From Leucoraja ocellata (Eukaryota), in the NCBI GenBank assembly GCA_036785375.1, contig JAWMAR010000361.1:248001-312000 (forward strand): 64,000 nucleotides of DNA, read 5' to 3'. A program made the translations under genes and the position numbers. Numbering within the stretch: the first letter of the stretch is position 1; each line of letters begins with the position of its first letter. Below are positions 8,492 through 57,350 of the stretch, one piece after another. Below the pieces are notes generated by a model. It was not told the origin of the DNA. It did not search any database and was given only the letters and a program-made list of their open reading frames with translations.

Positions 8492-8492
8492 A

Positions 8493-20695: not shown

Positions 20696-20697
20696 TC

Positions 20698-32172: not shown

Positions 32173-32220
32173 AGGGCCTGTCCCACTTGGCCGTCATTTA
32201 CGCGACAGGTTGGTAGTGGC
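32173..32220 (+). mobile_element. Solo PIF/Harbinger terminus
   Basis: TAA|AGGGCCTGTCCCACTTGGCCGTCATTTACGCG; no partner end seen nearby. Confidence 0.7.
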
Positions 32221-35200: not shown

Positions 35201-35228
35201 TAAATAAGAGTTTTGCAAAATATAGTTT

Positions 35229-35469
35229 GCCTGTCCCACTTAGGCGACTGTTTAGGCGACTTCCAGGGACTGGTGTTCATGGAATTCGCCTACGACATCT
35301 GACGACAGCACCTACAACAGCCTACGATAACACCTACGTCAACCTACAACAACACCTATGACAGCAAAAAAATTCGCCACTGTTGCCGAAAAATTTTCAA
35401 CATGCTGAAAATGTTGTGGCAGTCGCCTGTAGTCGCCCAAAAAAAAATCGCCTAGGTGGGGCAGGCCCT
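35229..35469. mobile_element. Internally deleted PIF/Harbinger MITE (~240 bp)
   Basis: GCCTGTCCCACTTAGGCGAC...TCGCCTAGGTGGGGCAGGCCCT|TTA; interior related to the 29464 copy. Confidence 0.85.
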
Positions 35470-36277
35470 TTATTCCACCAGAGATAATGAAATAACAACC
35501 ATGCACTTGTTGGTTGAATTGGGGTAGAATATAGTTGGTGTGGAAGGTAGAATTACCCACCAAATACAATTGCAACATATATCATATTGGGCGAGAATTA
35601 TAGCAATCAACCAATTGATCCTTCTGATGTTGATAAATTGTTTTAATTTAAAGGCTGCCAGATAGTCTGTGCAGCTTTCTGATGATGTTGGACTCTTTAA
35701 ACAGAACCAAGATAAGAAATGCTGCTTTATAGAAAACAATGTTGTCTTGAAAGTTTAAATTACTGTCTAAGCTCTGGTACTTTTGAGAGATACAGAGACA
35801 GCAAAAGGGACGTGCTTTGCTAACTTTTGCTTTCTACCTTCAAAATAGATTCCTAATTAATGAAGTTGGAAAGGAAAGTAATTCCAGTATATTTGTTTTC
35901 TTCATTAAAACAAATGGCTGCAGGCTAATTAAAAAATGCTGACAGCTTCTGAGACACTCACACTGCAAATCTTAGTCAAGCAGTAACATAAATTTACAAC
36001 AGAATTTCCAAACTGGTGCTCGTTAACACTTCAAGGACATGAACTTTAATTACAGCAGCAAATAATCGCTTTTATGACAAGCATCGCCAAGTTTATTTAA
36101 CAATGATAACATCAAAGTCAGGAAAGATTAATGCCTAAATTCTTGTAGAAAAAGACTTCTAAGATTACAGTCCAAGGGTAAAAATAACATCCACTCACAC
36201 TATTTCTTCTGGTCGTACTTATAGTTTGGATGTCTAAATAAAACGTGACTGCTCTCATCAGCCATATCATTCCGATG

Positions 36278-36590
36278 TTTAGAGATACAGCATGGAAACA
36301 GGCCCTTCGGCCCACAGCCCACATCGGCCATTGATCATCCATTCACACTAATACTATTTTATTCCACCTTCTTATTTACTCCCGACACATTAGGGGCAAT
36401 TTTACAGAAGACAATTAACCTACAAACCTGCATGTTTTTGGGATGCAGAAGGAACCCGGAGCATCGGAGGAAACCCACATAGTCACAGAACGAATATGTA
36501 AACTCCACACAGCAAACACCCGAAGTCAGGATTGAACCTGGGTTTCTTGCGCTGTGAGGCAGCAGCTCTATCAGTTGCTCCACTGTGCCA
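36278..36590 (-). mobile_element. HE1-like V-SINE, near full length
   Basis: tttagagatacagcatggaaacaggcccttcggccc...gtcaggattgaacctgggtttcttgcgctgtgaggcagcagctcta. Confidence 0.85.
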
Positions 36591-37349
36591 ATCCTGCTTA
36601 AAGTACTTGCTTGGGTTAAACCATCTTCCATGATGTAAAACAATTCCAATTGTAAAGATACATTTTTCGTATAAATTGTTCATTGCATTGCATCAAAATC
36701 ACTTTATCATAGAATATTACCTAGTTAAGGATTTAATATGAATTCACAAAGCTTGTTATTTCATACTACTGGAATAAAAAACACTGCAAGTATCACTCAG
36801 CCCTGCTGGTTAATAGGGTGGACATGCTTCATAATTTATGTTTATGCAGAATGATTGCTATAATAGTGTTGGGCAGACACCTACTGTCAACATAATATTG
36901 TCGGATGCGTCATCAATATTATCCAAGTACCACACTGAGCTGAACAGAACAGTAGCCTTGCATCTATTTTCCAATGTCCATAAAAGTCAAAATATATTCC
37001 TGCTGTTAAATTAATTGCAAAATAATTGGAGTAAATCAAACACACATAAAAAGGGCAGCCTGTTCACCATCCATAAAGGAGGGGGGAAAATGATCTGAAA
37101 AGTGCCAACAGGTGTTAGCACTAAAATATGAGCCTAGTCCTTTTATTTTCTCTGATTTTCAAACATCTGGATATATATCTCCAGCTGGACATTCTTATAC
37201 AGTGTGAGATTATAATAATAAATAATAATGGCTGCTGCTGGTACTTGGGTATGGCCATTTCGACACTGGCATTCAGTTTCCACATGTAGGGCTCAGGTAA
37301 CATGCAAGGGAAAGTTGGTGTCCATGTAACCAACCAACAGGTCATACTG

Positions 37350-37553
37350 CAGAACCAAGGAACGACAGATGTTGGTTTACACAAAAGGACACAAAGTGCT
37401 TGTTTAACTCACCGTGTCAGGCAGCATCCCTGGAGAACATGGATAGGTGATGTTGTGGGTCAGGATACTTCTTCAGACTGAACCGAAACATGACCTATCC
37501 ATGTTCTCCTGAGATGCTGCCTGATCCATTGAATTACACCAGCACTTTGTTCC
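37350..37553. mobile_element. Foldback PLE terminal-repeat element
   Basis: acaaagtgct...ggcagcatccctggagaacatggataggt is inverted against acctatccatgttctcctgagatgctgcc...agcactttgt, around cttcagactgaaccgaaac. Confidence 0.8.
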
Positions 37554-37919
37554 ATTGTTTGTTCCATTTCCTTCACGGAGGAGTGCCAGGTTTATCAATG
37601 GTCATATATTCCCATCCACGTTGCCCGTGTGGTGATTGATCAGCCCTTGGTGAGTTTGGGATGGGCACCCTGCCTACTGATTTTCTTGAATTCACTGTGT
37701 GAAACTCTTTAAAGCAATGTATTGTTGAATATTTGTATGATGTTGTTTGCCCACGTCAGGTATATTAGCGTGTTCAGCATACATGCATTGAGATGACCAT
37801 TGGCCTCATGAAATACTGATAAGCTATTCACCAAATTTTCCATATTCCAGGCCACAAAATATAAGCTCCATTTTGATTAGGTTTTATAGTGCAACAAAAT
37901 GGGATCCCAACATGCCCGT

Positions 37920-38055
37920 TTGATTAGTGCGGGTGTCAGGGGTTATGGGGAGAATGGGACTAGGAGGGAGAGATAGATCAGTCATGATTGAATGGCGGAG
38001 TAGGCTTGATGGGCTGAATGGCCTAATTCTGTTGCTATCACTTATGACCTTATGA
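37920..38055 (+). mobile_element. CR1/HER1-like LINE 3' tail
   Basis: gattagtgcgggtgtcaggggttatggggag...gggctgaatggcctaattctg; same family as 45030. Confidence 0.7.
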
Positions 38056-41000
38056 CCACAATAGGCTGGTCTGAGCTTGAATAGGCCACTAGGATAACAC
38101 AATGTCATTTGCAGTCATTGACTTTTTTGTACGTAGCTTAATGTTTTCCCAGTCAGTAGATAGTTGCTGGCAATATGTACAGCTCTTACTTGTTGGAGCG
38201 GTGTCAAAAAAGTTTGGCGATAACAAATGCATGAGGTTTGAATGTATTTCTTGATGTACGATTTTAGAATTGAAACATATCATTAGAATCTGAATCTTGT
38301 GTTTTAATAATTTTGACATATAAAATCAATGCTTTTTTTTAAACACTAATTTCAATTTTTATTGATTTGAAGCTTTAATATTACACCTCGGGCCAGACAA
38401 TTTATCAATGACAATATACCATGAAAATATAATCATTTGTCAAAACATAGAAAGTAAATATGCATGCATCAATAAATCATCCCTGCTTTAATTGTGTTCA
38501 TTGGCAGTAATATTATATTATTATGAACACAATTGAAAAAAAAATCCAGGCTTTATGTTATTGTTACTGAAATGAAAACATTGATAAATTCTTATTAGTA
38601 AATGGTGGAAATGTTCTTTTATGGATCTGTGAATGCAAAGTGAACTTGATGTTATCAATAAAAAGGCACTGCCAAGCTTAAATATAATGTTCAATCTGTG
38701 CAACAAATTAAGATAAATGTTAATATGCATTCATAGGCCTGTGGTGATTTATTTGGAATATATATTTGATCATAGCTAAAATGGCTTTAATACATCTTAT
38801 TCTTATATTTCTTTTTGAGCAATGTACATTTGTTGATTCAGATCTGACGAATTTGGTCATTAATAGTTCTGCATTTTGCTGGAAGAAATTAATATTTTGT
38901 TTCTGCATCTGCATTTAATATTTTGAAAGAAATTGAACATACTTGACTGTTATTCATGCTCTGAAATAATTAGTCTTGGGCAGATTAATGAGCATTTGAA
39001 GGCAGCCTTGAGGCGCACCTGCATGACCAAAACAGACAGTCAGCTGTGAAAGGGCATGACACGAGCAGCGAGAAAAGAAGGATGGATTAACTGCTTAAAA
39101 AACCAAAAGTTTTCCCATTGTTGGATATAATTCAGTTACATTCGTTGACAGAAGGCATCGCAGTCAAAAACAATTACAGCTGTGCACAACTGAATCGTTT
39201 AATTTTAACATTTCTGCCAATGCCTGCATACCAGAAATTCAAAATTATGTGCATTTATTTTTTTTTGTTACTGAACAAGCGGTGCGTATTTTATTCAATT
39301 GCTATGCTGGAAATTTCGAGCCTTGGCGTCTTGAAGAAGATTGTAGCGCTCAAGGGCTTCCTGATGAGTCAATTTTTACAGTGTGCAAACATGCGAGTCA
39401 TTAAGATGGCCATTTCATGTTAGTTCATGCATAAAATAGTCAAACAAAACATGCCGTTTAAATTGCTGTCTGAGGTACTTTCCAGCATCAGTTCCTGTGT
39501 ACAGATGAGATGGAGTTCAAGAAAAATAAATGTAAGAAAATATTTAGAGAAATATGCTGGATGAAACAATGGTCAATTTTTTCAGACTGCACAGATTCCA
39601 ACCACTTCCTGCCATCCCTCCAGCTAAAGTATCCAGCAGAAAATCACATTCAGTTTTCCCAAGTGAAAAATGTTACAAAATGGCTTTAAGTCTCCTTTTC
39701 ATGCAAGTCTTAAAGAATAGGTATTGTAAAACATTTGCAGCACAGCAGAATGTTATAGAAGAGAAAAAGAGCTCTGACACCTACATCACTCTCGAGTAAT
39801 AACCAGATTTTGTTTATGCATCTAAACAAATGTGTGTGGTGCCTTCTTCTCCAAGTGACACAATGGTATGAAGGAGCTCAGTGGGACGATTTTACAGTTT
39901 TTGGGGCCAAACATAACCACTTAATGATTTTCTCTCCTGGACATTAACAAAACTCACCATTGCCAATTGTAATTGATATGCATGCAACTCCTTCAAAGTT
40001 GTTCCCTTAAAAGAACCAACAGAACATAACACTTAAATTTCCACAGGAGTCAACCATATCGGCATACAGTGAACAAACATTAACAGCTGTCCAGCTGGCT
40101 CAAATTTCCATTCTGACAAGTGACCATTTTCCAGTAGAGTTAGTGTTAATTCATCCATACACCAAAGACTCAAATAGTATTTACGTACAATTGGGCACTA
40201 CAGTTGGATCCAGAGCATGCTGAGCAGCACAATCAAAATAAAGACAGCATTTAGTAAATGCTTTTATAATATCCCCTACCATGTTTATGGTGGATAAAAG
40301 GTTCTGAGTGGGAAAATACCCAGCCACCATCTTTCTCCTGCTGTGGACTTGTGCCTTGTTTTAAAAATAAAAATATACAGAAAGTTTGAACAATTTCTTG
40401 GAAAGAGAATAGTGGATCTGATTGTGGACTACTTATCTTTCACATCTTTAATCAAACATTTGAAAAACACGCAAGACGTCCTCCGTTATTCAAACTCCCT
40501 TTTTAAACGTAACTCCATCTAAGCCAGCGTTTGTTGTTCATAGTCCAGTTGTGCAAAGGACAAACAGTTTTAATTTTCCTCAAATATTTAAAATTATATT
40601 ATGACATGCTTTCAAACTCTGAAAGGCCCAAACATACATATTTGTTGAAACATGCTGCTTCACTAATGCAAGAAATCAATCATTTGTCTTTTTAACGGGC
40701 AATGTGGCTCGATGGTGTGGATTCCAGCCCTCCAGCAGTAGATGTGTTAATACCACAAACCACAAAGACTCAGTCTCAACGGAGAAACATGTTTCTGTGA
40801 TTTAGAATGTAATATACCGGCAACCTATTATTCTGCTCACTGTCAAACAGCAGAAGATCATTAGGTGAACCTCACCAGTCTGTGCCTCTGGTTTCGATAC
40901 ATATTATCAGTAATTGGTGGGATACAACAAACTACTCACATTTCATAGTCAAGAAGAGTTGATACTGCCAAAGTGCCCCTGTATCATTGACGACATTTTG

Positions 41001-42007
41001 CCTGGATTAGAATTTCAATTGCAGATTTTGAAAAACACATCCGTTCTGTAGTTCCCCTGCGATGATTAATCTTTTGTTTGGCAAATTCAGGCAAAACTTA
41101 AAAAATACTACAAACATCATTATTACATTAAAATAACTAGATGCAAAATTACAAAGCAACAGGCTACCACAGATCCCAAATGGGCTTTGAAGAATGATGA
41201 AGAAAATGGAATCAATGCCAAGAGACAATCTGAAATTAAGTGTCCACTGCTTCGCAGAAGAGACATGCCGGAGTGCCATAAAATAGGCAGAATAATTCAG
41301 GGCGAACTGTCTGAGAGAAGGAGAGCTATGTGGGAAACACCGGACACTGGAATCTTGCACGGAACACAAACTGCTGGAGTAACTCAGTGGGTCAACATCT
41401 TGAGAATGCAGGTTAGTAAAGATGAGGAGTGGTTTTTGAATGAAAAAGTGTGTGATCTGGAATGGAAGTCTTAAGGTTTTGGATAGACTGGAACCATAGA
41501 GGATAGAAAATAGGTTGGCAAAGTAGAGAGCACTGGGATAATCATGGTAGGCATTGACAATGACTAGCTTTAAGTGGCAGGTGAGCTGAAGGAGATGAAG
41601 TAGCAACAGAAAAGGACTTGATTCGGAGACACAAGTAGCTAACCTTGTGCTGGAGTCTTAAGCTCAGCATCATAAGAACATGTACTTCCAAATATTTTTG
41701 CTTCATCCACGATTTTTGCAAGAGGATGGAGCTGGTGGGTGGATTTTAAGATAAATTGCTCTTGACTCCCAATGTTTAGCTGGAAAAAACTTGGATGTTC
41801 AAGAATTGATATCAGACAAAAAGTTTCTTAATTCATCCTGTAATTGTCTCTGAAAACAGTGTCTTGACTGATGCATTGTTGACTTGGGTCACAGGCTTTC
41901 CAAGGATAAGAGTGCATCTGTGCTACAAGATCCCAGAAGTATATATATAACCCTATTGTATATCTATCTATGTGTGCGTGCGTGTGTATTATATACCACG
42001 GGCACAG

Positions 42008-42225
42008 CCAAGTCAAGTCAAGTCAAGTTTATTTGTCACATACACATACGAGATGTGCAGTGAAATGAAAGTGGCAATGCTCGCGGACTTTTGTGCAAAA
42101 GACAAACAACAAAACAACCAAACAAATTATAAACACGATCATAACACCCATATTCTTTTACATGATAAATAATGGAAGGAAAAACGTTCAGTAGAGTTAG
42201 TCTCTGGTGAGATAGGCGTTTACAG
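42008..42225 (-). mobile_element. Non-LTR retroelement 3' end with (CAAGT)n tail, Rex1/Babar-like
   Basis: caagtcaagtcaagtcaagtttatttgtcacatacac...cagtgaaatgaaagt. Confidence 0.6.
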
Positions 42226-43855
42226 TCATGCACTGTCACAGTTCCTGAGAACAAACTGCACACATTTAGTTTATATACATTAGTATCCGTACACTTTTCA
42301 AAATCTTTATTTTAATGCAGTGATTATGAAAGCTTTTCTCCATAAACTGACATAAATTTGTTCTTTATTTTCTAATTTCTGCATATTTAATAATTGTAAT
42401 CACTCTCACAAAGACAGATTAATTTGGATTTTTCTCATTTAAAATCTTAGCAAAATTAACAATGTAATGTTTATTTGCACAATGGTCCCATCTAGAACAC
42501 GGTTTAAAGTTCCTTGCTTGATTACACTTTCAGTGACTAAAGTACACAGTCAGTAAGAAAATGACATGAGGATCTGTACGACATTGAATCATGCAGATTC
42601 ACTTCATTCTTTCCCTGGGCACCGTACACTTAGATGAGAATCAACACGCTGATTAAATAGATTCCCCAAGTGTAATCCATAACAAACTTTCTCCATCCTT
42701 CATCGTTAGTTTTGACAAAGCACCATAACAATCAGATCATTAATACACCCACAGTCTAAAAAGAACCGGAAGCAACAAAATTAATGTAGTATCTTAATAT
42801 TGATCTAAGCCCCCAAACACATACATTAAGCATCTGCATGAGAAAAGCAAGCCAGCATTTTCCTTTGTGCCTCTCCCTCTTGCAGTTAATGCTGCTAATT
42901 AATTAAGTGCAGATCTCCTGAAGAAGAAATATCACTTGCCAATAGAATAATGTTTAGAAAGTCTAGAGGCACGGGCACATTGCATGCTTTTAAAAAAAAG
43001 TCTGGTTTACAGCAATTGCGTTTCATTGTCACAATATATTTTATTAATAGTAACTTGGCAGGGGAGCTTATTGATTAGGTTTGAACAGAAGTGAAACCCA
43101 ATTAGAAATTTGCATCTAATTAACATATGTTTAACATAATTACTGTCCTTCCCAACAAACTCATTTATATTGATTTCTGGATGGGTTGGCAAATATCGGA
43201 GGCATGACAAATGTGATTTAGTAACTGGTGCACTCAATTGTTAAAACTGGTACAACATACTGGTTGCAGGTCTAAAACATATTGCAATTGATGCATGAAG
43301 GAATTGCCCTTGACCCATACATTAACATCACTCATACAATAGATTAATTATGTATTCAAAATGTGTTAGGGGAGTGCATTTAAAATGATTAGTGGGGTTG
43401 TCAGAATTACTTAAAGTTGACCTGTGGTTTAAATAAAAGCTGCAAGATGTCCATGTACAGGTAAATTCAAGGGATGGACTCATTGTTTTTCGATACAAAA
43501 GCAACATAGAAAAATAATCAGGGTGTGGGCATTAAAAACTAGTTGTGCAACATTTTGTTTGAGAGCACAAATAGCAAGGACAAAAACACATCTAAAAGTG
43601 AAATGTCAGCCAATAAACAGAGGAATATTTTGATAGTTGATGCCTTTATCATTTTGAATAGAAGGATAAGAAATCAAAATATCATCTTTCAGATCCATGG
43701 CTTGTGTTTATTTGAGTCAATACACTTCCTGAGAATAGAGTGAAGTAACTGTATGCATATTTAAAATTATAGTTCTATTCCAGGAGAACCATAATGGTGT
43801 AAATACTTTGTGGGAAAGACAATTAGACATTGCTGAGATTTTATTTTGAAGATTG

Positions 43856-44165
43856 TTTAGAAAGATACAGCAAGGAAACAGGCCCTTCGGCCCACTGATT
43901 CCACGCTAACCATCAAATATCCGTTCATACTCGTTCTACACTATCCCACCCTCTCATCCACTCCCGGCACACTAGGGGTCATTTACAGAGGTCAATTAAC
44001 CTTCACACTCACACATCTTTGGTATGTCGGAGGAACGGGGAGCATCTGGGGGAAATCTATGCAGTCACAGGGAGAACGTGCAAACTCCACACAGACTGCA
44101 CCCGAGGTCAGGATGAAACCGGGGTCACTGTCACTGTGAGGGAGCAACTCTACCAGCATTCCATT
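43856..44165 (-). mobile_element. HE1-like V-SINE
   Basis: tttagaaagatacagcaaggaaacaggcccttcggccc...gagaacgtgcaaactccacacagactgcacccgaggtcaggat. Confidence 0.85.
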
Positions 44166-44530
44166 ACTGAAAATAATCACTCCACAGGACACTTTGAAAT
44201 CAACTGGTCACCGCAAATACTCAATTAATATCATATTAACATTTATCAAAAAAGAACATAACTTCATAAAATTGTTAGATCAATAAATTCTTCATCAAAC
44301 TTATGTAAACCTGGGATTAGATTTTTGTTTTGATTTCTTTTCCTATAATGGTTAACATTTATTCATGTATCTCATTTGCCTTTGAAGTAGAAATGAGCCA
44401 CCTACCTGAACCCATGCAGCCCTGTGATAATGTTGCTGCAATCAGGGTGGTACAAGTACGAGATGTTGAATGAAATCTGAAATAACTAGCAAAGGAGAGA
44501 AAGCCACAACAAACACTTCTCTTCCAAGTG

Positions 44531-44732
44531 TGTCTGAAGGAACTGCAGATACTGGTTAATACCGTAGACACAAAATGTTGGAATAACTCAACAGGACAAA
44601 CAGCATCTCTGGAGAGAAGGAATGGGTGACGTTTCAGGTTCAAACCCTTCTTCAGACTAAAGAAGGTAGTCTGAAGAAAGATCTCGACCTGAAACGTCAT
44701 CCATTCCTTCTCTCCAGAGATGCTGCCTGTCC
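44531..44732. mobile_element. Foldback PLE terminal-repeat element with a hammerhead core on each strand
   Basis: 65-bp inverted arms 44594-44658 and 44668-44732 with a 9-bp spacer. Minus core CTGAAGAAGGGTTTGAACCTGAAACGTC; plus core CTGAAGAAAGATCTCGACCTGAAACGTC. Confidence 0.85.
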
Positions 44733-45029
44733 AGCTGTTATTTCTCTTCCAAGAATGCTTTCTGCAGTACTTTGGCTCTGCAGAATTCAGACACTGGGCA
44801 ACAGCAGGCTCCAAGATATTGAGCTGTTAATATGAATAATCTCCAAGATTGGTTGGTTTGTATCTTAAAAGGAAACTTACAATTTGCAAATCTGGGATGT
44901 ACAAGTGACCGTTGGCTGACATGGACTCAATGGGCCGAAGGGCCTGTTTCCACGCTCTATCTCTAAACAAAACTTCTTCCATCATGTCAATGCTTGCTAA
45001 GAGACTGATGAGGTGGTAACTGGCTAGTA

Positions 45030-45195
45030 ATTTTTAAGACAGAGATAGATAGATTATTGATTAGTACAGGTGCTAGGGGTTATGGGGAGAAGGCAGGAGA
45101 ATGGGGGTTTAGAGAGAAAGATAGATCAGCTATGATTGAATGGTGGAGCAGATTTGATAGGCCAAATGGCCTTATTCTGCTCCTATCACATGAAC
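45030..45195 (+). mobile_element. CR1/HER1-like LINE 3' tail
   Basis: tttaagacagagatagatagattattgattagtacaggtgctaggggttatggggagaaggcaggagaatgggg. Confidence 0.7.
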
Positions 45196-47927
45196 TTAGT
45201 TTGGGAAGTTCCGCTTGCAAAGGACATACTTGGGCAATTATTTGCATGTTGGATGGATGCCAGTGTTAAAGCTATTTGGCTCTTGACTCATCAAGTTCTG
45301 AAGCTCATGTTCAGCACTGAGTGGAGATGTTCTGGGTAACTCACATGACAGGGTGAAATGAATGAGCTTTTGTGAAGATGCAACTACAGGAGGCTCTGGC
45401 CATCATGCTCTCAATGGAATAAGGTTGATTGCAAACATCAGCCTTGCATTTTGCACACATCTCTCAAAACACTGGGGTTTCACTAAACATAAGCTGCAAT
45501 TCAAAATTAGGCAAAAAAAATCACTTGGATTCCAATCTATTCATATAAAAATGCTACATTCTCTTTATGTATCCCAGACCTTTCTAATATAGTTATTCTT
45601 TACAAATTAGAATTTATAAGGAATTCTAAACCGGCCACCTACCTGAATTCCTGCAACCCTACGATAACATTGCTGCAATGTCGGGGTGGAATTAGGGATT
45701 CAGGTAAGCGTTTTTTTTTAGAATAATGGAAACATTTAAGCAACCTTGTGAAATATTTTGATATACTTGGGAGATCAAAATGATCTTCAGCCTCAAAAAC
45801 CTTTTAATTCTTCTCATTGCTTCCAGTTGTACTGAAACGTGTTTGTTTAATGTAAGATTAGTGTAATTTAGTTTAGAGATACAGTATGGTCTCAATTCTA
45901 CGATCCACTGAGTCCACACTGACCAATGATCACCTGTCACACTAGTTCAATGTTATCCTATTTTCTCATCTACTACTGTTACTGCTCCTTTACGTAACAG
46001 GCTTCCTCAAACCTCTTGCTGTCTCTAACTCTCTCCATTAGTCTCTATTTTTGTTCATTAAGATTAGGTCATTGACAGAAATGGGGAAACTGGACTAGTG
46101 AGACCATATCTACTTGGGGGAATTAACGTTGGCAAATGCAGCTAATTATATTAAAATTATATTATCTCCTGGGCCATGAAATGGGTAGCTGCAGAAGCTT
46201 TACGTCTCTTCACATTAAGATACATTATAAGATATTAGCACAAAAACATACTTTCTACTAAAAATCAATTTTAGTAACAAGTCGAGTTGAGTCAAGAGAG
46301 TTTATTGTCATGTGTCCCAGATAGGACAATGACATTCTTGCTTGCTGCAACACAACAGAGTATTGGAAGCATAAATACAGAATAGTTCAATGGAAGAGAG
46401 TTGAAAATTCAGTAAAAGTAATGTTTTGCAAAATATTTACAGAACAGTCAAAACAGAGATTATGCGATTGTCTAAGAGCCAGATATCAACGGAAATATTA
46501 AATTGTGAATCATTTATATTTTGTCCGACATTCTAAAATGCGCTGAAATTTATAATGTGGAAAAAAAAATCCAAAAATATGTTGCAATAAATGCTTTAAA
46601 AACTTCAACTTTTAAGAGCAAAATTAAATTATTGATCTATAATGATTTATGTGCTTTTGAATTATATCAGTAAAAATGATAAGCCTATTATTACATAACC
46701 GACTATTTATACACCACAGCATTTGATTCGCAAGTTCGAGAAGCTTTCTTTCATAGCACCTTTAAATTATTTTAAGGAAACAAATGTCTGTACAATGTAG
46801 TTTGCAAATTGATACTAAAAGGTAAAGAGAACATAATATTTTGCATTCGTGTCTAACCTGAAAAACCCAACCCAAAACCATTTGTGTGTAAATGTTTGCT
46901 TGCTGTTTTTTTAATATTTAAATTGCTGCAGCTTTCTGCAGACTGAGCTTGACAGCAGCTTTGATGAATTAAGTAATGCTTGGTTTAATTCATTAAATAA
47001 ACTACAGAACCTCATGCCATCTCCCTTATCTGTCTCTTTGCATTCATTCTTTAGGTGCTTCATCATGAGATTTTAACCCGAGGTTCTTCATCAAATTGAT
47101 CTGACCCTGAAACGGATTCCAAGTAAAAACTTGTAGCTGAAATATTGACATATTTATATCATCATTATTCATCTTACAAGTTACACTTGATCTCATTTCA
47201 ATGTTCAAAAACACATTAATTGATACTACTGAGCAAATGATATTCAACAATGAAAATATCAACTCTAATTAGTTTTATAACACATTCACTGCCTACATAT
47301 TCTATGTAACAACCTATTTAAGAACAGACTAACATCTCAACTACAGTGTTTTATCTATTAAAGCAACCCATTTCAAAACTAGCCACAAAGGGATGGATTA
47401 AATAAAAGTCATCTAAGATGCCCTGCTTTTAGCCAAGCAAAGCAAAATTTATTTTGATCTAATCCTGCATTCTAACCATAATTTAGTTTTAATGAAACAA
47501 AATGTGGACAACATTAGGCAGGTCGGTTTCAATGTATTTTAAGACAACATGGCTCTGAAAAGATTAAGGCGTTTTTTTGGCATGCATAAAATTTAGAAAA
47601 ATAAGGTTCTGGACTATTATTCTGGTGTTTTAGAGGATGATAAAAGCTTAGTTTGAATAATTTCATCTGGGCTATTTCAGAGTGGTTACGTACTATATCT
47701 CACCTGACAGATGCCTCTTTATGTACTGAAGTTGATCATTGATGGAGGACTACAGAACCATAATATGTGGAACAAAGTGTGTACCACTTGGTAAGTAGCC
47801 TAAATCAAGATTATTTTGGAAATAATGATAATAGAAGGAACTGTCAACTTACTGCATTTACCAAGACTGAACATCACCTCCATAGATACACATTTTAAAT
47901 TTAATTTTTGTTCAAACTTTACAATGG

Positions 47928-48204
47928 CCACTGCCTCGAAGCTCGAGAGACCTAGGTTCAATCCTGACCTTGGGTGCTGTCTGTGTGGAGTTTGCATGTT
48001 TTCCTTGTGACCGTATGGATTTCCTCTGGGTGCTCCAGTTTTCTCCCACATCCCAAAGATGTGCGGGTTTGTGGGCCTCCGTAGATTTGCCACTAGTGTG
48101 TAGGGAGTGGATGAGAAAGTGGGACATAATTGAACTACTGTGAACAGGTGATCGATGGTCAGCATGGAACCGGTGGGCCGAAGGGCCCGTGTATCTCTAA
48201 ACTA
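47928..48204 (+). mobile_element. HE1-like V-SINE
   Basis: ggttcaatcctgaccttgggtgctgtctgtgtggagtttgcatgtt...gggccgaagggcccgtgtatctctaaactaa. Confidence 0.85.
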
Positions 48205-48231
48205 ATCATTTAAGCAGACAGGTTTCAACAC

Positions 48232-48440
48232 AAATGGAGGGAATGGACAGGCAACATTTCAACTGAGTCTGCATCAGTCTGAGGAACTGTATGATTCAAA
48301 AAGTTGCCTGTTCCAATCAATTTGAAGAAGGGTCCCAACTCAAAACTTTTCCTGTCCATTCCCGCCACAGACCAGCAGAGTTCCTTCAGAACTTAAATGT
48401 TTTGCTGACGATTCCAGCATCTGCTGTTTCTTCCATCTCC
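48232..48440. mobile_element. Decayed foldback/tandem PLE terminal repeats
   Basis: gggaatggacaggcaacatt is inverted against aaaacttttcctgtccattccc; two plus-strand core remnants (gtctgaggaa; ttgaagaagggtcccaactcaaaac). Confidence 0.6.
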
Positions 48441-48949
48441 AGACTAGTTCCATGTGTTAAATACTTTGAAGATAAGCAAATTAACAAGTTCAAATGCCAC
48501 CTTCAAATGTTTCCAGTAGAGGATCCCATCTTATTCAGATCACTACTTTAAGATGGTGAAGCGCATTTTTGTCGATATTTTTCATCACGGAATCTCATTT
48601 CTTCCCTTTCATAGCAAACAATGTAAGGCAGCAGCTGGAGATTTAATTGCATGATACGATAATTCTGTGTGACATATAATGGAATCTTACCAAAAGCCCA
48701 TCCCATGCCTTGGGTATTTAATGTGCCAGTAACATACTTCCAAAACATTTCTCTATGTACATACAACACACTCTTGCAGAGAGCTGCAAGGCATGTATAG
48801 CAATGTTAAATGTTGCACAATACCTTGACGTGACTTGCAAAATAACTCCTATGTGTAAGCATAGCCCTTGTACGCCAAATAATTTTGTGTAAATTATATC
48901 ATAATGAGAAGCATGCTTTATCTAAAAATTGCTGGAGAAACTCAGTGTG

Positions 48950-49142
48950 TTGATCCTGACTACGGGTGCTGTCTGTACGGAGTTTCCCCGGGTGCTCCAG
49001 TTTCCTCCCACATTCCAAAGACATACGGGTTCGGAGATCAATTGGCTTTGGTGAAAATTGTTCCTTGTGTAGGGGATAGTGTGGGAATTGCTGGTCGGTA
49101 TGGACTCGGTGGGCCGAATGGCATGTTTCCGCTCTGCATCTG
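48950..49142 (+). mobile_element. HE1-like V-SINE lacking its head, abutting a PLE arm (48905-48946)
   Basis: ttgatcctgactacgggtgctgtctgtacggagttt...gggccgaatggcatgtttccgctctgcatct. Confidence 0.8.
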
Positions 49143-49749
49143 TATGAGTGCATAGCAGAATCACCAGATTCATTTGCTTCTTCTAACATCAGCTCTTTTG
49201 AAACTGTAACAATTTTAAGAAAGAAACAACCATAAGGGACATCCATGCATTTTATCTCATTGTTCTGTGTGAGATCCTCCTCTGCACTGGTGGCTACATT
49301 ACAATAGTGGTAATGACACTTCAAAAGCACCTCATGGTCATTAAACACCAGCAGTGATCGTGGATGTAATGGTTGGTACATAAATACAAGTTTGGATATC
49401 TGTTCATTATCTGAACATTACAATTCTTCTGCAGCCTTTGATGTGTTACCATTCTTTAATTGATGCATTAATTTCATGGGGTTGCTTGGGATTCTTTAGT
49501 AACTGCCATCAGGCCTGAAGGTATTTAGATCGTAAGACAAAGATCCAGTTACAAACTGGTAATATTCAATTGGAGAAAAATGAACAGAATGTTCCAAATA
49601 ACTTGGAGGATAATAACAAGTGGTACTAACAACACAAAAGAAAAATATTACCTCGACTGTCCCAGTCTCTACTGCATTTCTTCTACAATCATTGCTGATC
49701 ATAATGCAATGTAAAGCCTAAGTTGTGCAATTGTTATCTATCTATCTTA

Positions 49750-50701
49750 TCTATATAACTAAAAGTATCATCTTGACCACTTCCTGTCTGTGCTATATAT
49801 TGATTTTCGAAAAAAAAACACTTCCCAATATCGCTATGATTTTTGGCCATCTTACTCACAGTCCTGCTCCGCTGAGGCAGCCCCGAGGATTTTTCCGATC
49901 GATGAAAAATAAGAGTTATTAGTGTTTAAAATATCTTGAGATCAGCTGATTGGTCCTCTCGCCTGTCAATCACCATGATGAAAATAACGCCCCTTCCTGG
50001 GGTGGGAGGTTGCAACCTTCACATGTTTCCACGAATGCAATCAACCTGGCGTGCACAATCATATAAGATCAAATAGAACAAGTTGTCCTCCCCCTCCCCT
50101 TCGACCACCTCTCTATTGATCCTCCTCCCTATCTACCCCCTCCCTCTCTACCCCCTTCCCTTCCCCTACTCCTCCCTCTCTACCCCTTCCCTCTCTGCTC
50201 CCCCTCCCTCTTGATCCCCCTTTCCTCTCTCACCCCCCCTACCTCTCTGCCCCCCTCCCTCTCTAGGGTGTGGTGAGTATTGGGACCTATGGGTGATTGG
50301 TGGAGTATTCCGTTCGGGAACCAGCCCTCCCCTGTGACGCTGCTCCCCCCCCCCCCCCTCCACACCCCTCAATCTCTACCCCTCCCCATCCCTCTACCCT
50401 CCCTCTCTACCTCACTCACCCTCTCCCTCTGCACCCCCCCTCCCTCCCTAACCCCACCTGCGCAGTTGGGGGCTATGCGTGAGTGGATAGGGTGGGGGAA
50501 AAGGAGCAAATGAATAANNNNNNNNNNNNNNNNNNNNNNNNNNNNNNNNNNNNNNNNNNNNNNNNNNNNNNNNNNNNNNNNNNNNNNNNNNNNNNNNNNN
50601 NNNNNNNNNNNNNNNNNNNNNNNNNNNNNNNNNNNNNNNNNNNNNCCCCCCCCCCAACACGCGTTGAGGGGACGGGACCCAACGGGTCCCACTTGGTCTA
50701 G
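49750..50701 (+). mobile_element. Non-autonomous Helitron
   Basis: 5' a|TCTATATAACTAAAA; 3' hairpin GGGACCC-AAC-GGGTCCC (50674-50690), 7-nt spacer, CTAG|t; inserted at A|T with no TSD; C-rich low-complexity interior. Confidence 0.85.
50518..50644. other. Assembly gap (127 N)
   Basis: Run of N inside the Helitron low-complexity region. Confidence 1.
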
Positions 50702-51760
50702 TTTATTTTAAATATATATTCTCAAACTAGTCGTCATTAGTACTGTTTAACCAGAATATACATTTTTTTAAATGGGGAAAGCTGCATACAGATTATGTAA
50801 CAGTAGAGGTTAGATGCTTTTGCGCTCCTCTAAACAATGCTTATCTTGTAATGGACTAAAAGGGCTGTTGAATTTCCAGTGTGACACTTAATTAGCCCAC
50901 TGCAAGTGGCACTCGAACGAAAGAACAAGAATTTCAGCTGCATTTCAAAAACTGCAAACACAATGCAAATACAAAACCAAGCTCACAAACACTGGGAACA
51001 CACGAGTAGCTCGTTAACTTTGCCCCCTGGATGCCAAACATTTACATTCACTCATGGTCTACTTTTAAAGGGCAGAGCACTTTCTAATGTTTGCAGCGGT
51101 TGAAAGTGATAATTAGCATGTCCTGCCACAAAAGGTTCTTGCTGTTGCCCACTGCATTGTAGCAAAAGTAATTGTTTTCCCCAAATAAAGAATTGATGCC
51201 AAAATTGGTTTCCTACTGATGCAAGATCAGAAGTCCAAGCCAAGCAGCTGAACATGGTTATTACTGAACACACATCTCTTGCCAACCAACACATTGAATG
51301 GCGTTTATATTTCTATAAAAAGTATTTTGTTACACTACTAAAAAACTAGGCTTCCTTTGCAAATATATAGCATATTCACTCCCTTAATTATTCTATGCCA
51401 AACTAGAAATTATTGCCCAATATATTTTTATACCAGCATTAGTTAGTTCAGTTTTTGGCACAAGAGTACATTATTTGATTGCATTAGCTAATAAGTGTAT
51501 ATGTAACAACTAAAATACCTGAAATTGACTTTCAGATGTAAACTCTTGTTAAACAATATCATTCAATTAAAATGGCTGATCAACTTCTAAAGTTGCTGCT
51601 TGGAGTATCTATCTTGTAGCATATCCTTCTCTAAAATATATTTCATTTAATGGATATGTGATTCACTGATAAGATCACTTGGGTTTGATTACATGGTGTT
51701 GTAAAAGAAAAAAATATTAGCCTATCAATCTATTAAACCTAATCGTTTTGAAACAAAAGA

Positions 51761-51948
51761 CAATGCTCTCCATAATATTTGGGACAAAGACCCATCATTT
51801 ATTTATTTGCCTCCCTACTCCACAATTTGAGATTTGTAATAGAAAAAAATCACATGTGGTTAAAGTGCACATTGTCAGATTTTAATAAAGGCCATTTTTA
51901 TACATTTTGGTTTCACCATGTAGAAATTACAGCAGTGTTTATACATGT
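51761..51948 (+). mobile_element. Tc1-like transposon terminal fragment
   Basis: CAATGCTCTCCATAATATTTGGGACAAAGAC resembles CAGTG-starting Tc1 TIRs; no TA TSD or partner end seen. Confidence 0.6.
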
Positions 51949-52545
51949 ATTGCCAGTGTTGGAAATCTTAAATAAAAATAAAAAATGCTGCAAATACTCA
52001 ATAGACGGTATTTGTGGTAAGAGAATCAGGTCAATGTGAAACATTAATTATGTTTCTCTTTAAACAGATGGCTCCTGAACTGGGAACTAATTTTTATTAT
52101 TCTTCGGTGGGAAATGCAAGTTGCTGGAAAGGTCAGTATTTGTTGCATATTCTTAATTCCCTGGAAAAAAGCGAAGATAAACTGGCTCGACATACTGTTG
52201 CAATCTCGATGCTGAAAACACTGAAAGAATGCGGTTTGGTGGGGGAATTTTAGGATTCTGACCTATCATGATCGAGGAATAGCAGTAAACATCCAGGTCA
52301 GAATAACAAGGGCCATGAAGGAAAACAGATTCAAAATAATGGATATTTTTCAGACGAGGAACTGCAGATGCTAGAACATTGAGCAAAACGCAAGAAGTAC
52401 TGAATGAAGTAGGTCAGTGGCTCAGGCAGCATTTGCAGAGGATAAGAATAACAAGAGTCCTGGTAGAGCTTCAGCAATCCAAGGATGGAAAACATCAGAA
52501 CATCACACCTAATGATCTGTTAGATGGTGGAAAGCCTTAGCCATT

Positions 52546-53030
52546 TAGGTTCAAAGGTATTTTATTGTCACGTGTACCATTTAAGGTGCAGTGAAACTCG
52601 ATTTACCAGTCATACCATAAAAAAGAAACAAGACACACAACTACAGAAAAGTTAACATAAACGCCTACCACAGCAGATTCCCCACATTCCTCACTGATGG
52701 AAACATCTACAAGATACAAGATACATTTAATTGTCATTTGGACCCCTTGATCCAAACGAAATGCCGTTTCTGCAGCCATACATTACAAACAAATAGACCC
52801 AAGACACAACATAATTTACATAAACATCCATCACATTGCTGTGATGGAAGGCCAAAATAAACTTATCTCTCCACTGCACTCCCCCCCCCCCACCCCACCC
52901 TCACCCCCCCACACACACACCCCAACAAAAAATAACAAAAACTACATAAAAACATAGACAGAAAATAATAAAACGCGGACAGACTGCAGAGGCCGCTGCT
53001 GACGAGAGTCGCGCCGCCCACCGGTTCTAA
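52546..53030 (-). mobile_element. Two adjacent related non-LTR retroelement 3' ends
   Basis: tttattgtcacgtgtacc...caagacacac...acataaac...tgatggaa, repeated in diverged form after caagatacaagatac (52710-52850). Confidence 0.55.
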
Positions 53031-53354
53031 TCTCCTTCCCTCTTTATTCTCCCGCGGTCATGGCAGCCAAACCATCCACAGCACCCGCAGCTGGAGATCG
53101 AAGGCGGCTCACTTATCTCAGGATACACGGGCTCTAATATGTTGGTTTGATTAAATTTGTAGTCAATGACAAATAATAGGATATTTATAAAGGCAGTTAG
53201 ATTGTTAATATTGTTGACTGCCAAGGAGACATGGTTAGACTTTCTCTTGTTGAACTCTTATTGGAACATATGTATCAGTTGTCAATCCATGTGTAAATTT
53301 TGTTCAGGCACCAAGTTGGCAGGCAGGTCCAACAAGTGTTGCCATGTTGGCCAT

Positions 53355-53945
53355 CACTACATAAGGGTTGGAGTTTAAGAATAGGGAGGTTGTGCTGCAG
53401 TTGAACAGGGTGTTGGTGAGGCCACGGCTGAAGTACACAATTTTAGTTCCTTTACCTAAAAAAAGAATATGGCATGATTGGAGGTAGTCCAACAGATTCA
53501 AGCTGAAGCCGCGGATGAGCGGGGTGTCTCCACAGGATATTTTGGGTCTGTATTCCTTGGAGTTTAGAAGACTGAAGAGTGACTTACTCCAACAGTACAT
53601 TAACCTAAGGGGAAATAGACATTGAGATATTCTCAAGATTGGGAAAGTGATGAACAAGGGGACAAAGTTCCAAACTAAAGGGCCAGTCTCTGAAGCACAG
53701 AGAAATATCTTCCCTCAGAGATTTGGGAATCTTTGGAATTCTCTGATCCAAGGGTGGTGGAGGCCATTATAAAAATATTTAGGGTATAGATAGATATTTG
53801 AAAGATTGAGGGAGTTTGGGTTTCAGGGAACACGCACAGAGAGAGATTGAGGCCAGTGGAGGTCAGCCACCATCATACTGAATGATGGACCAGGCTTGAG
53901 TGGCCTAGTAGCTGACTACCCAACCCCAGCTCCTATTTTCTTGTG
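53355..53945 (+). mobile_element. CR1-like LINE 3' portion
   Basis: ttggtgaggccacggctgaagtac (LVRPRLKY, from LVRPHLEY)...tattccttggagtttagaagactga...cagccaccatcatactgaatg...ctcctattttcttgtg. Confidence 0.75.
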
Positions 53946-56078
53946 TTTAAGTTAAACACAACAACATCCTGTGACATGCATTTGATGATGGATAATAAAT
54001 GTGAATTTTAAAAAGAGACTATTATTTTGAAGGATGCTTTCCATAACCCCATGCTGGTCCCAAGATGGCTGGCAAAACATTTGTCAAAATTGCAGCAGAC
54101 TAACTTTTACAAGTAATCAACACCAACTTGCGTTTGAGGTTTATTTCTGAGATACGAGCTGAGAAACACAAGGAAAACTTCAGTTAGTACAACCATATAC
54201 TTGACAAACTTCTGAAAGGGAACATGGTGTCTCAACTGAATGGTTCATATTAAAGTTGCCAATTGTCTCAGTGCAACAGTCCCTCAAGACTCAGGGTGTC
54301 TGGAGTGGTCCTTTATCCCATGACTGAGATTGAAAAAGGAAAATGTTATCATTGAGTCGTGATGCAAGCAAAAGGGGGAAGTATAAGAGTTTTGGCACTA
54401 TCATGCAACAATGTTGTGATTAAAGGCCCCAAGAACCTAGAATAACAAGGTAAACAATAAGGCAACATTTAGAGCACATAAAAAGGTTTCAGAAAGTTGG
54501 TGGATCAGTTCATGAAAGCTAGTTTGACAAGTTAGAAACAACAATTCTACGTTTAAGTATAACTCACAGACAACCCAGAAAATTATGGCTTAAATGATAG
54601 TCTTTCCTGTGTTCTTTTACTTAACTAGTTTTTCACATTTTGATCACCTGGAATGCTTTTGTTCTCAGTGCAATGATTATTTGTGAAGCAAGACCTTGGC
54701 ACAAGATCTGTCAATTTTACATACAGCTGCTGAGATCAATCGCACAGGTATCAATGTAATCTTAAAATTATGATTCAGTCAGAGAACCAGTCACTTAACC
54801 AACTCATATTGATTCAAACTTACCTGTATTATTTTAAACAAAATATCGGGAAAATTTAAGAATTTAATAAAGATATCAAACTTTGATCTTGTATTCTTCA
54901 CACATTGATTATAACAGAGTGAAAAGATGTGGGGATGTGCTTGAGGTAATTCTACTAAAATAAATTAATGTAGGACTGTCTTGTCATTAAATATATAAAA
55001 CTTCAATCTGAGGTAAACTGCCTGCGTGACACTGTTAAATAAATTATACCAATCATTTGGAATTTTGCCAATTGGATTAAGAAACAACATTTATTCTACC
55101 AACATCTTGTGGCAAATGTCAGTTTGGCTGCAGACAGCCAAAATAAATGAAATATGTTTCAATCACAAAAGGACATACTTTTGCCTGATAACAGGATAAC
55201 AATTGAATAACAAGCAGCAAATCAAAAGGCTTGATTGAGACTATAGATTACAAATGAGGCCGTTTATGACAGTTAGCTGAGCAGTGAACTTAAATTGTTA
55301 CCCAAAATTTAGAGCCAGGCATTTATCATATGGTTAAAAGATGTGTACAGGTCAGATAATAGCAGAGAACTAGATGTTTCTGAGTCTGGTGATAAGTGGT
55401 GATTTGTGTACTTTACTGCTCTGGAAGAATTTTCTCTCTAGTTTACACAATTTTATAGTTTATCAAATAAAATGATAAATTAAAGACAAGAATTCACAAG
55501 ATGTATTGACACAATGACTTCAAGATGCAGTTTCATTACAACAGCATGAAACCACCAAGGAATATTTTGATATGTCGCTATCACGATCACTTCATCGACT
55601 GTGATTCAAGGCAGCATGATTGCTTAAGGCAACCTGTCTGACTAAAGCCATGCAGACTTTGCTGAGGTCAATCAGATATTTCTATCCAACTTCTGTGAAA
55701 TACGGCTCACCACCATGAGCAAAGGCTGTCAAAAAAGATTCCCTACGGCTCAGGAAATGTCTACTTTTGTTTTTTTGCAGTCCTGCTGGTAGCCATCGTT
55801 TTTCCGACACTTGGAAAACTTTGTAATATCATTTGGAAGAAAACAAATTTCATCTTCCGTCCAGTGATGCACACAATGCAGCCGGAGTGAGAAACTAACA
55901 CAACCAGCTGCAGATCTTGGCTCAAAATGGAAATGCTGATTGTGCCAATACAGTACGAGAAATCGTTATACTTAGTCAAATGGAGTTCATTCATCTTCAA
56001 TCAAGTTTTCACTGAAACTTCAAAATAAATTGCGGTGGAACTTGCATTTCTGAATTACAACCCAGATGATAATTAATT

Positions 56079-56190
56079 GAAGATAGACACAAAATGCTGG
56101 AGTAACTCAGTGGGACATCTCTGGACAGAAGGAATGGGTGATGTCTTGGGTCAAGACCCTTTGTCAGACTGAAAGTCGGGGGAGAGGGAA
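56079..56190 (-). mobile_element. Decayed PLE terminal repeat
   Basis: gaagatagacacaaaatgctggagtaactcag...gggtcaagaccctttgtcagact. Confidence 0.75.
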
Positions 56191-56584
56191 ATGCTGTTTG
56201 AATTCTCATGCAAGTGTTATATTGTACACTCTAGAGCTATGATTTGCCTATTAACCTTTGGGGAAAGCAAAAATCCAGACCTCTCAAGTATAAACCCAAG
56301 TTCATTACTGTGGGAGGAAATGTTACATGACGAAATCGGTGGTAAACTCAGATCTCCCAGATGTTCAGTTGTGATTCTGGGCAATCTTCCCTTCAGGTGC
56401 AGAAAAAAAAAGTAGAAATCTATACATGGGCAATCATTTGGGTTATTGTTAAGATAAAACTAAAAGCTGAGCAAAGCTGAGAGATATTTTATTGTTTGAA
56501 TCAAGTAAGACGGCAGTACACATTTTTTCTTTGTGCTTTCATATAACATACTGACTAAGATAATGTATGTGATTGGACTAAAAT

Positions 56585-56800
56585 ATAGAACATAAAACAG
56601 TACAGCACAGGAATGGTCCTTTCAGTCCACAATGTTTGTGCTGAACATGATGCCTAACTGAGTGGATTTCACCTGTCTGAACATGATCCATATCCCTCTA
56701 TTCAAGATACAAGATAGATTTATTCATCACATGTGCCAGATGGCACAGTGAAATGAAATGCCCTGCACTTCCATGTGCCTATCTGAAAGCCTCTTCAACA
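56585..56800 (-). mobile_element. CR1-like tail interrupted by a short retroelement 3' end (56702-56760)
   Basis: tagaacataaaacagtacagcacagg...atatccctctatt | caagatacaagatag...gaaatgaaatg | ccctgcacttccatgtgcctatc. Confidence 0.65.
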
Positions 56801-57156
56801 CCAGTTCTATAACAACTTTTAAATGTCTAGTTTGCATAAATTTACCTTTGAAATAAAAAAGTCACATTCTTACTAATCACAAGAAGATTGTAAAATTAGA
56901 GATTAAAGAAATATTTATTGAACAGTTCAGGTCACAAGGGATACCAGGTTATCTCTTTGTACTATTACATACAGCTCAGCTGATGTCACCTTTTATGAAA
57001 TTAAAGTTACAAATTACTTATTGGTGTGACTGATTCTACTGTGTACAAGAAATTAATGACAATGGCACCTGAATTTTACAAATCAGCTGAATTCATTCAG
57101 AAGCATTTTATTTTGATTTAAGTCTCAACATGAAGTGCATGCCGATTTGTCATTAC

Positions 57157-57350
57157 GCAAAATGCTGGAGGAATTCAGCATGTCTGGCAGCAAATGGGGA
57201 TGGAAATGGGCAAGCAACATTTTGCATCAGAACCCTTCTTCAGACTGATTCAGTCTAACGAAAGGTCTGGACCCAAAACATGGCTGCCCTATTTCGCTCC
57301 CCAAATGCTGCCAGACCCGCTGAGTTCCTTCAGCATTTTGCTCAAGATTC
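57157..57350. mobile_element. Foldback PLE terminal-repeat element
   Basis: ~92-bp imperfect arms gcaaaatgctg...cagcattttgc centred on AGACTGA-T-TCAGTCT (57242-57256). Confidence 0.8.

Follow-up and report, generated by a model that had tools for sequence, protein, structure and literature searches.

In endonuclease-bearing (EN+) Penelope-like elements (PLEs), among them Drosophila virilis Penelope, Adineta vaga Pen2 and Pen3 and the Neptune clade, the terminal pLTRs have been described with a 5'-truncated copy in inverted, head-to-head orientation, together with partial tandems, a palindrome at the junction, a C-terminal GIY-YIG domain upstream, a one-sided tail of 30-40 nt and a target-site duplication (TSD) of variable length (PMC3846280, PMC8557442, PMC2377424; statements on published systems refer throughout to the accessible parts of the cited papers). 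How the tandem and inverted structures originate is described as unresolved in PMC8557442, and in PMC3846280 the inverted palindromes were read as self-priming on an antisense template, not as two-ended priming. The PLE protein of Anolis carolinensis Poseidon (PAc) cuts and extends both strands, starts reverse transcription from two internal sites whose spacing corresponds to the tail, is predicted to form a dimer and is independent of ribozyme cleavage (PMC11167929). PLEs also carry minimal type I hammerheads, which are without loop III, require a second same-sense copy and show low activity even as dimers; most of the PLE motifs are singles from truncated elements, and in Schistosoma pairs lie 100-700 bp apart on opposite strands (PMC4209133). 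Like the copies described below, non-LTR retrozymes are ORF-free, pLTR-related, equipped with a type I hammerhead and probably dependent on a PLE enzyme (PMC7229834; bioRxiv 10.64898/2026.07.22.740005, which lists one chondrichthyan). Unlike our single or inverted copies, they consist of head-to-tail units of 150-450 bp with a core in each and give circular RNA (PMC7229834).

Here, we analyzed a window of 64 kb, the whole stretch of Leucoraja ocellata DNA presented above, for short inverted pairs of a hammerhead-bearing arm (foldbacks). These foldbacks are a known kind of PLE insertion structure and share all of the EN+ PLE traits listed above. Unlike in those elements, the structure is reduced to 130-210 bp, since an ORF is absent from the foldbacks, and the TSDs measure 13-17 bp compared with 8-10 bp reported for A. 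vaga (PMC3846280). In the literature searched, with most subscription papers outside reach, we found no description of this PLE family in elasmobranchs, which is not proof of absence. Each foldback is likely an old, separate by-product of the insertion of a Neptune-like PLE, with two 5'-truncated 3' ends placed head-to-head within TSDs, and not a unit that multiplies by transcription, self-cleavage and renewed copying.

Identity of the repeat arm

Sequence comparison identifies the arm as the 3' end (pLTR) of a PLE, with the Neptune clade as the likely assignment. One copy in the window still joins the arm to coding sequence:

1529..1946, plus strand: 5'-truncated parent PLE with GIY-YIG remnant, UTR and arm with intact core (C3 at 1855)

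Within this copy, 1529-1749 represents the remnant of a C-terminal GIY-YIG endonuclease (EN) with one frameshift near 1602, separated from the arm on the same strand by a pyrimidine-rich UTR of approximately 105 nt. The earlier note was right in regarding the arms as terminal repeats of PLEs that bear minimal hammerheads of type I. The remnant is 81% identical over 43 aa to a predicted protein of Leucoraja erinacea, the last 100 residues of which begin with a weak GIY-YIG match, and it matches the EN ends of the proteins P0121, P0127 and P0162-P0164. The latter three are RT-GIY-YIG ORFs, with RVT_1 and GIY-YIG of P0164 above or near the cut-off, and via P0127 the remnant is linked to shark and unnamed proteins in which an RT is followed by GIY-YIG. 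In the zebra-shark protein P0162, a Pro/Ser-rich read-through past the EN terminates in a peptide that equals the arm translation at 7/11 aa. The score of this match (37) equaled the maximum among 18,276 peptides sampled from the window (99.9th percentile 25), with a single-pair E-value of 0.037 for so short a match, and the read-through can be taken as an independent, short sign of the same EN-then-arm order. The link of EN and arm comes from one copy in the window, for which we estimate chance adjacency at about 0.03 in view of 29 arm matches in 64 kb.

A tblastn search of the window with four RT-EN proteins found no RT remnant, the RT being seen in database relatives only, and Pfam assigned only UbiA (a COX10 exon) among nine window ORFs; the 55-aa EN remnant misses the Pfam GIY-YIG domain because it lies too far C-terminal. 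A CX2-5CxxC linker, assigned to Neptune and Nematis (PMC8557442), precedes the GIY-YIG domain in P0127, P0163 and P0164, and the window remnant starts downstream of it. PAc belongs to the Penelope/Poseidon clade (PMC11167929), whereas these relatives of the window element carry the Neptune/Nematis linker. The gene models of P0121, P0122 and P0127 fuse the PLE EN end to unrelated domains, namely a LINE-like RT, a GPCR and DUF4518, and are probably the outcome of exons mis-predicted from PLE remnants.

Structure of the focal foldback

The whole focal insertion spans 44529-44739 (211 bp), thus exceeding the interval 44594-44732 delimited in the earlier note, and is asymmetric. Its layout is an inverted arm, an abortive start and a full arm, enclosed by a TSD:

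44515..44528, plus strand: TSD, left copy, 14 bp, 13/14 identical to 44740-44753
44529..44563, minus strand: PLE "tail", 3' extension of about 35 nt, on the left arm only, inner edge approximate
44564..44658, minus strand: left arm, 3' part of the pLTR spanning -3 to about +92 (nhmmer E 2.5e-29)
44655 (C3) to 44628 (H17), minus strand: left-arm minimal hammerhead core, intact
44657..44667, plus strand: junction, abortive copy of the arm start with 2-base overlap with the left arm
44668..44739, plus strand: right arm without tail, part of the pLTR spanning -3 to +69 (nhmmer E 9.7e-21)
44671 (C3) to 44698 (H17), plus strand: right-arm core, intact, stem II weakened by an A-C mismatch
44740..44753, plus strand: TSD, right copy

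Numbered from C3, the left arm including its tail extends to +127, while the right arm ends at +69. The inverted arms of 65 bp each (44594-44658 and 44668-44732, 57/65 identical), the 9-bp spacer between them and the core on each strand were all confirmed as originally noted. The spacer (44659-44667) is not foreign DNA but an abortive third copy, as judged by the identity of 44657-44666 to the first 10 arm bases at 9/10 positions. Folding of the focal region gave -113 and -123 kcal/mol with z-scores of -16.6 and -18.6, calculated from 40 dinucleotide shuffles per strand.

Compared with 1500 random site pairs, the focal TSD had p=0.002, and the same p was obtained in a wide and adjacent-site search. 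Since one TSD boxes both arms, they are shown to have been inserted in a single event. By eye, the left TSD copy begins with the same three bases that come next in the arm sequence at the right junction, suggesting microhomology at this position. The left tail reached a score of 40 against the tails from six single copies (p=0.003). A candidate tail on the right arm (score 23, p=0.026) was rejected, its position beyond the TSD identifying it as flank.

The right arm is 63/65 identical to a single copy at 59472-59445 (minus strand), 14.8 kb away. Both have two stem II G-to-A changes in common that are missing from the focal left arm. These changes may reflect a subfamily variant, with two templates used in one insertion, gene conversion, or chance, the last of which we estimate at roughly 0.1.

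Host intron and neighboring repeats

The focal element is located in an intron of COX10, with its left arm in the sense of the COX10 pre-mRNA:

12643..58162, minus strand: COX10 intron, 45.5 kb, edges approximate, from tblastn exon matches
58294-58163, 12642-12571, 4957-4721 and 484-89, minus strand: COX10 exons, compared with ray COX10 proteins

The ORF at 86-535 matches protoheme IX farnesyltransferase, the best named matches being from rays and sharks (86-93%).

Several other repeats share the window. An element of 567 bp at 29465-30031 has the appearance of a true MITE, in contrast to the PLE foldbacks: it is bounded by terminal inverted repeats of 55 bp, contains tandem repeats of 27 bp in its interior and is flanked by TAA/TTA. 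We take its 3-bp flank to suggest PIF/Harbinger. Its terminal 12-mer occurs six times (0.18 expected), including 14510-14521, 32174-32185, 35457-35468 and 59333-59344. One copy of the element (about 58937-59344) lies at the tail end of the 59.4-kb PLE arm, beside an arm fragment at 58904. An abundant dispersed repeat of 150-300 bp (D3, D8, D12, D14, D16), presumably resembling a shark and ray HE1-type SINE, was found at 5326-5486, 9631-9806, 20766-20941, 36400-36574, 43981-44156, 48008-48190, 48970-49163 and 62811-63005. Another one (D19; 8401-8478, 37964-38041, 45112-45189, 2290-2370) ends in short tandem units, presumably like a LINE 3' tail, and one of its copies adjoins the 8.5-kb foldback. 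The window further holds a long degenerate C/T-rich tandem repeat with strong strand skew (50090-50460) and, in the intron, a sub-threshold Rfam SNORA41 match at 23962-24090 (30 bits vs 80, E 0.71), which is probably due to chance.

Other foldbacks and single-arm copies

An arm profile built from six window copies gave 29 matches at E<=1, which condensed to 22 loci, seven foldbacks and 15 single arms, after a weak match at 779-799 (E 0.89) was dropped. The earlier note had listed the focal layout at six further loci; the head-to-head order held at all six, the back-to-back intact cores did not. These foldbacks and two of the single-arm copies are:

603..742: foldback, both arms begin near +45 without core, tail on left, candidate 15-bp TSD (12/15)
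8488..8618: foldback, full minus-strand arm (G12 mutated, 13-nt deletion, tail) and a stub of about 16 nt
28522..28678: foldback, left arm short, tailed and core-less, core start of the right arm damaged, candidate 14-bp TSD (11/14)
37350..37553: foldback, left arm tailed and extending to -5, right arm begins in stem II
48228..48434: foldback and partial tandem, candidate 13-bp TSD (10/13, p=0.055)
57156..57364: foldback, 1-nt center, both arms begin at -5/-6, both cores mutated
816..911, plus strand: single-arm copy, no tail, own TSD at 799-815 and 912-928 (15/17), 5' end at -3 to -6
59352..59473, minus strand: single-arm copy with tail and intact core, of the subfamily of the focal element

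The stub at 8.5 kb is the 3' part of an arm, joined by a 3-bp overlap and not included in the alignment; no significant TSD was detected at this foldback. Neither a TSD nor an intact core was found at the 37-kb foldback. At 48 kb, an inverted arm is followed by a forward piece of about 40 nt (48274-48312) and a second forward arm with tail, and at 57 kb a weak tail on the right is accompanied by a candidate 14-bp TSD (10/14, p=0.087). One arm is without all or part of the core at 28.5 and 37.4 kb, and apart from the core-less locus at 0.6 kb, the remaining non-focal foldbacks have mutated cores. Partner arms are 69-85% identical over six pairs, which indicates old copies.

On one end, the tail score had p<0.02 in all seven foldbacks, with the 57-kb case weak in scoring no higher than a single copy in which no tail is discernible (p=0.017 for each); at 48 kb, the end without tail reached p=0.056. 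The TSD search gave p<0.05 at 3/7 foldbacks and 1/15 single copies and failed at 18/22 loci, and these p-values are optimistic because several boundaries were set by hand after candidate repeats were visible. According to such hand-set boundaries, 3' ends fall into two classes approximately 35 nt apart, near +92 to +98 and near +127. This resembles PAc, in which the hammerhead is situated ~100-130 nt upstream of two tail-defining 3' end classes and copies likewise seldom begin at the ribozyme cut site (PMC11167929). With regard to the cut site (+29), at most one weak copy in the window has a 5' end nearby (52449, about +33).

A second 9-bp odd palindrome was noticed at arm +68 to +76 (e.g., 28571-28581, 8596-8605), placed at or beside the point where the focal right arm terminates 3' and the junctions at 8.5 and 28.6 kb. 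At 61459-61551 (plus strand) and 61940-62067 (minus strand), single arms from two different subfamilies stand tail-to-tail 440 nt apart and represent an inverted pair by chance.

Hammerhead cores

All 12 checked invariant hammerhead positions are present in both focal arms, as are the conserved core, stem II and the palindromic 15.2-16.2 pair. An Rfam scan of the window at E<=1 reported no hammerhead and two weak unrelated sub-threshold matches, taken as chance; the hammerhead call therefore rests on inspection of motif and secondary structure. In line with the PLE hammerheads of Cervera and de la Pena 2014 (PMC4209133), the copies show CUGAnGA, one unpaired base, GAAA and the palindromic 15.2-16.2 pair in the absence of loop III, and 10/14 window copies have the G10.1-C11.1 closing pair, which is lost in both focal copies unlike in the published consensus. 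Stem II comprises 4 bp and stem I 2 bp, the latter compared with 4-5 bp in the consensus and 2 bp in D. virilis (PMC4209133). The two focal cores are separated by 15 nt, compared with the 100-700 bp of the Schistosoma pairs (PMC4209133).

Within the window, the core is intact in five of 24 aligned arms and recognizable in 16; among the 14 aligned foldback arms, only the two focal ones have it intact. Over 14 copies, stem II pairs in 82% of cells, far above slid controls, and stem I shows two consistent pairs with the third one unpaired in 9/14 copies. Covariation in the hammerhead stems of these copies was not above shuffles (175/500). The core mismatches the majority in 10/160 non-CpG cells, similar to three family-invariant non-core blocks (6/105, 4/80, and 10/78), and this similarity to neighboring sequence fits neutral decay after insertion. 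G12, located within a CpG, is lost in 7/16. Mismatch over all non-core columns is higher (185/963), but includes subfamily differences.

As anticipated in the earlier note, a transcript of either strand holds a core and its antisense copy, hence one core and never two. Its suggestion that the long hairpin competes with ribozyme folding is likewise supported by the energy model: forcing the hammerhead fold is predicted to cost 30-35 kcal/mol in the whole element vs 5.5-8.6 kcal/mol in single arms, and the whole element leaves core bases almost never unpaired (0.00-0.01). Transcription of COX10 would produce the antisense arm ahead of the core and let the two pair, leaving the ribozyme silent. 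Because the cores never share one transcript and the predicted hairpin buries the one that is made, retrozyme-like processing appears unlikely. Two or more head-to-tail units with complete hammerheads, which would characterize a retrozyme, were not found in the window. Dimer cleavage by such hammerhead variants was reportedly addressed in a 2017 paper.

Origin of the foldbacks

The seven foldback junctions in the window are all different, with a common junction in 0/21 locus pairs. They comprise a 1-nt center (57 kb), a start in stem II (37 kb), the abortive copy (44.6 kb), the 40-nt partial tandem (48 kb) and the stub (8.5 kb), and those at 0.6 and 28.6 kb are positioned downstream of or within the core. 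In an arm tree of 18/24 arms (>=70 nt, six shorter ones excluded; 101 columns, 3/15 forks well supported), foldback arms group with single copies in at least three subfamilies. An AU test, run after the tree had been viewed, rejected one clade for the nine foldback arms among the 18 rows (p=0.00011). A partner arm was the closest match in 6/12 comparisons and among the top four in 12/12. None of the nine TRF rows of the window represents a tandem array of the arm unit, same-strand intact cores are at least 14 kb apart, and the partial tandems are without a second intact core. The foldback loci vary from 130 to 211 bp, with ends differing between loci.

These data bear on the proposal of the earlier note that the foldbacks are a self-contained, retrozyme- or MITE-like family, transcribed and mobilized as a whole by a PLE RT. 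This idea is favored by the frequency of foldbacks (seven of the 22 loci), by the existence of non-autonomous PLE derivatives (PMC8557442; bioRxiv 10.64898/2026.07.22.740005) and by a common upstream limit, which stands: five of the seven junctions, like numerous single copies, stop within a few bases 5' of the core, and the loss of UTR similarity within 9 nt in 16 of 19 arms reaching the core start suggests a defined unit. The remainder of the proposal did not hold. Comparison of the junctions across the window, as the earlier note had advised, found all seven unlike, the outcome it had itself named as speaking against a family. The arms span at least three subfamilies instead of one clade, and the cores decay like neighboring sequence. 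No same-strand pair of intact cores or tandem array of the unit was seen, the ends are asymmetric, and the ribozyme fold would be costly in the foldback. We therefore regard mobilization of the whole foldback as improbable. MITEs, as class II elements, are similar in being short, ORF-free, inverted repeats with TSD. They differ from the foldbacks, which have asymmetric ends (+127 and +69 in the focal one) that vary by locus, and arms derived from a retroelement. MITE TSDs are short and superfamily-specific (2-11 bp), unlike the 13-17 bp of the best TSDs found here. Arms could also have come to lie side by side through separate, independent insertion of two single arms, or through local inverted duplication at a later time, considering the density of arms (29 profile matches in 64 kb), their divergence of 15-31% and the fact that the focal right arm resembles another copy more than its partner. 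This origin is still more improbable, given that one TSD encloses both focal arms, junction gaps amount to 0-10 nt at six loci, 7/7 close pairs are head-to-head, and partners belong to the same subfamily more often than by chance; the only tail-to-tail pair (61459/62067) combines two subfamilies 440 nt apart.

If the host had retained the hairpin or ribozyme to serve in COX10 RNA processing or to supply small RNAs, this would agree with the position in a transcribed intron, where a long duplex would form, and with the siRNAs that inverted Penelope repeats give in Drosophila (PMC3681739). The arms, however, diverge at 8/65 sites without compensation, covariation does not exceed shuffles, and an Rfam match to mir-788 reached 29.6 bits against a cut-off of 90. 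Single arms show neither strand bias nor depletion relative to COX10 sense (10/15 sense, p=0.30). We consider host retention the most remote of the explanations. The interpretation as separate insertion by-products, favored above, agrees with the layout with a one-sided tail, which equals the published PLE insertion pattern (PMC8557442, PMC3846280). It applies to one 64-kb window, and a family with fixed junctions is possible elsewhere.

Mechanism of formation

Given that the foldbacks are insertion by-products, we infer about an even chance that they arose from two-ended priming with annealing. The endonuclease would make a staggered cut, creating two 3' overhangs of ~14 nt, both extended by the RT, with the tail start site (about +127) used for one and the second start site (about +92) or internal microhomology for the other. 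Both cDNAs would halt early, often a few bases past the core. Because they are of the same sense, their ends could pair solely at a self-complementary sequence, for which the native 9-bp odd palindrome (-5 to +4) would serve; annealing of the cDNA 3' ends and fill-in would then generate the foldback. Template jumps would give partial tandem pieces such as 44657-44667 and 48274-48312, and completion on one side would give single-arm copies. With each overhang priming its own cDNA, a head-to-head repeat with a one-sided tail within a TSD would be the expected product. The palindrome is also present in a single copy keeping the upstream UTR (56172). For 14-nt ends taken from three copies, cDNA ends halted at -5 are predicted to anneal at -7.5 to -7.9 kcal/mol, and the same 14-mers form no hairpin, apart from a marginal one in the 37-kb end, which extends beyond -5. 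Against this model, the focal right arm ends at +69 and not at the second start site. We found no two-ended priming model for PLEs in the literature searched, most subscription papers being outside reach.

Alternatively, a cDNA or antisense template could snap back at the core-adjacent palindrome, copy itself and join the opposite end of the target by microhomology, as proposed for PLE inverted junctions (PMC3846280). On the premise of an insertion by-product, this self-priming falls somewhat short of an even chance, and taken outright it is a tentative option, slightly lower again. It is consistent with the arms of one locus being usually of one subfamily and with the focal and 37-kb junctions running straight into the complement of the core start. 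On the other hand, 1-nt centers cannot close as hairpins, and the tested cDNA ends give no stable fold-back. A self-copy should moreover often reach the tail, whereas arms without a tail terminate near +92, as do single copies without a tail. The identity of the focal right arm to the 59.4-kb copy (90%), compared with 85% to its partner, is a weak hint of two templates. Sequence alone does not separate snap-back from two-ended priming.

The 5' boundary of the arms

Of the 19 arms that reach the core start, three retain at least 20 nt of pyrimidine-rich upstream sequence, and these were the only references for the 5' similarity extents, many of the short ones being within random range. Two copies have pyrimidine-rich flanks, possibly decayed UTR, and in the copy at 816 the TSD fixes the 5' end at -3 to -6. 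The boundary fits a transcription start, a 3' splice site after the pyrimidine tract, or simply the palindrome. In our view, bases -5 to +2 fit the vertebrate initiator consensus with +1 at position -3. For Penelope of D. virilis, an internal promoter has been described, along with an intron close to the 5' end (PMC2377424); this intron ends at helix I (PMC4209133).

Of the remaining observations, this boundary speaks most strongly for a defined short RNA. If it were the true RNA 5' end, internal initiation nearby would yield a cDNA of ~95-130 nt, comparable to a retroviral strong-stop product. A dimeric PLE enzyme would make one such cDNA on each cut end, and the two would anneal through the palindrome overlapping the hammerhead core. 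The conjunction of RNA 5' end, one short cDNA per cut end and palindrome annealing is speculative and, on balance, unlikely.

Significance

The arm represents an abundant family of PLE remnants in a batoid genome, with 22 loci found within 64 kb, and is of relevance for repeat annotation; foldbacks of this kind may be mistaken for microRNA precursors or MITEs. In these minimal foldbacks, the junction, the side of the tail and the TSD can all be read within ~200 bp, and there are probably many of them per genome, which makes them a convenient natural dataset for discriminating two-ended priming from self-priming. If the strong-stop scenario were true, the conserved core region would also be a DNA joining signal, two-ended priming would yield head-to-head repeats as its programmed product, and short RNAs of the pLTR would act as SINE-like passengers in skates; thereby, it would account for the puzzle of inverted repeats in PLEs.
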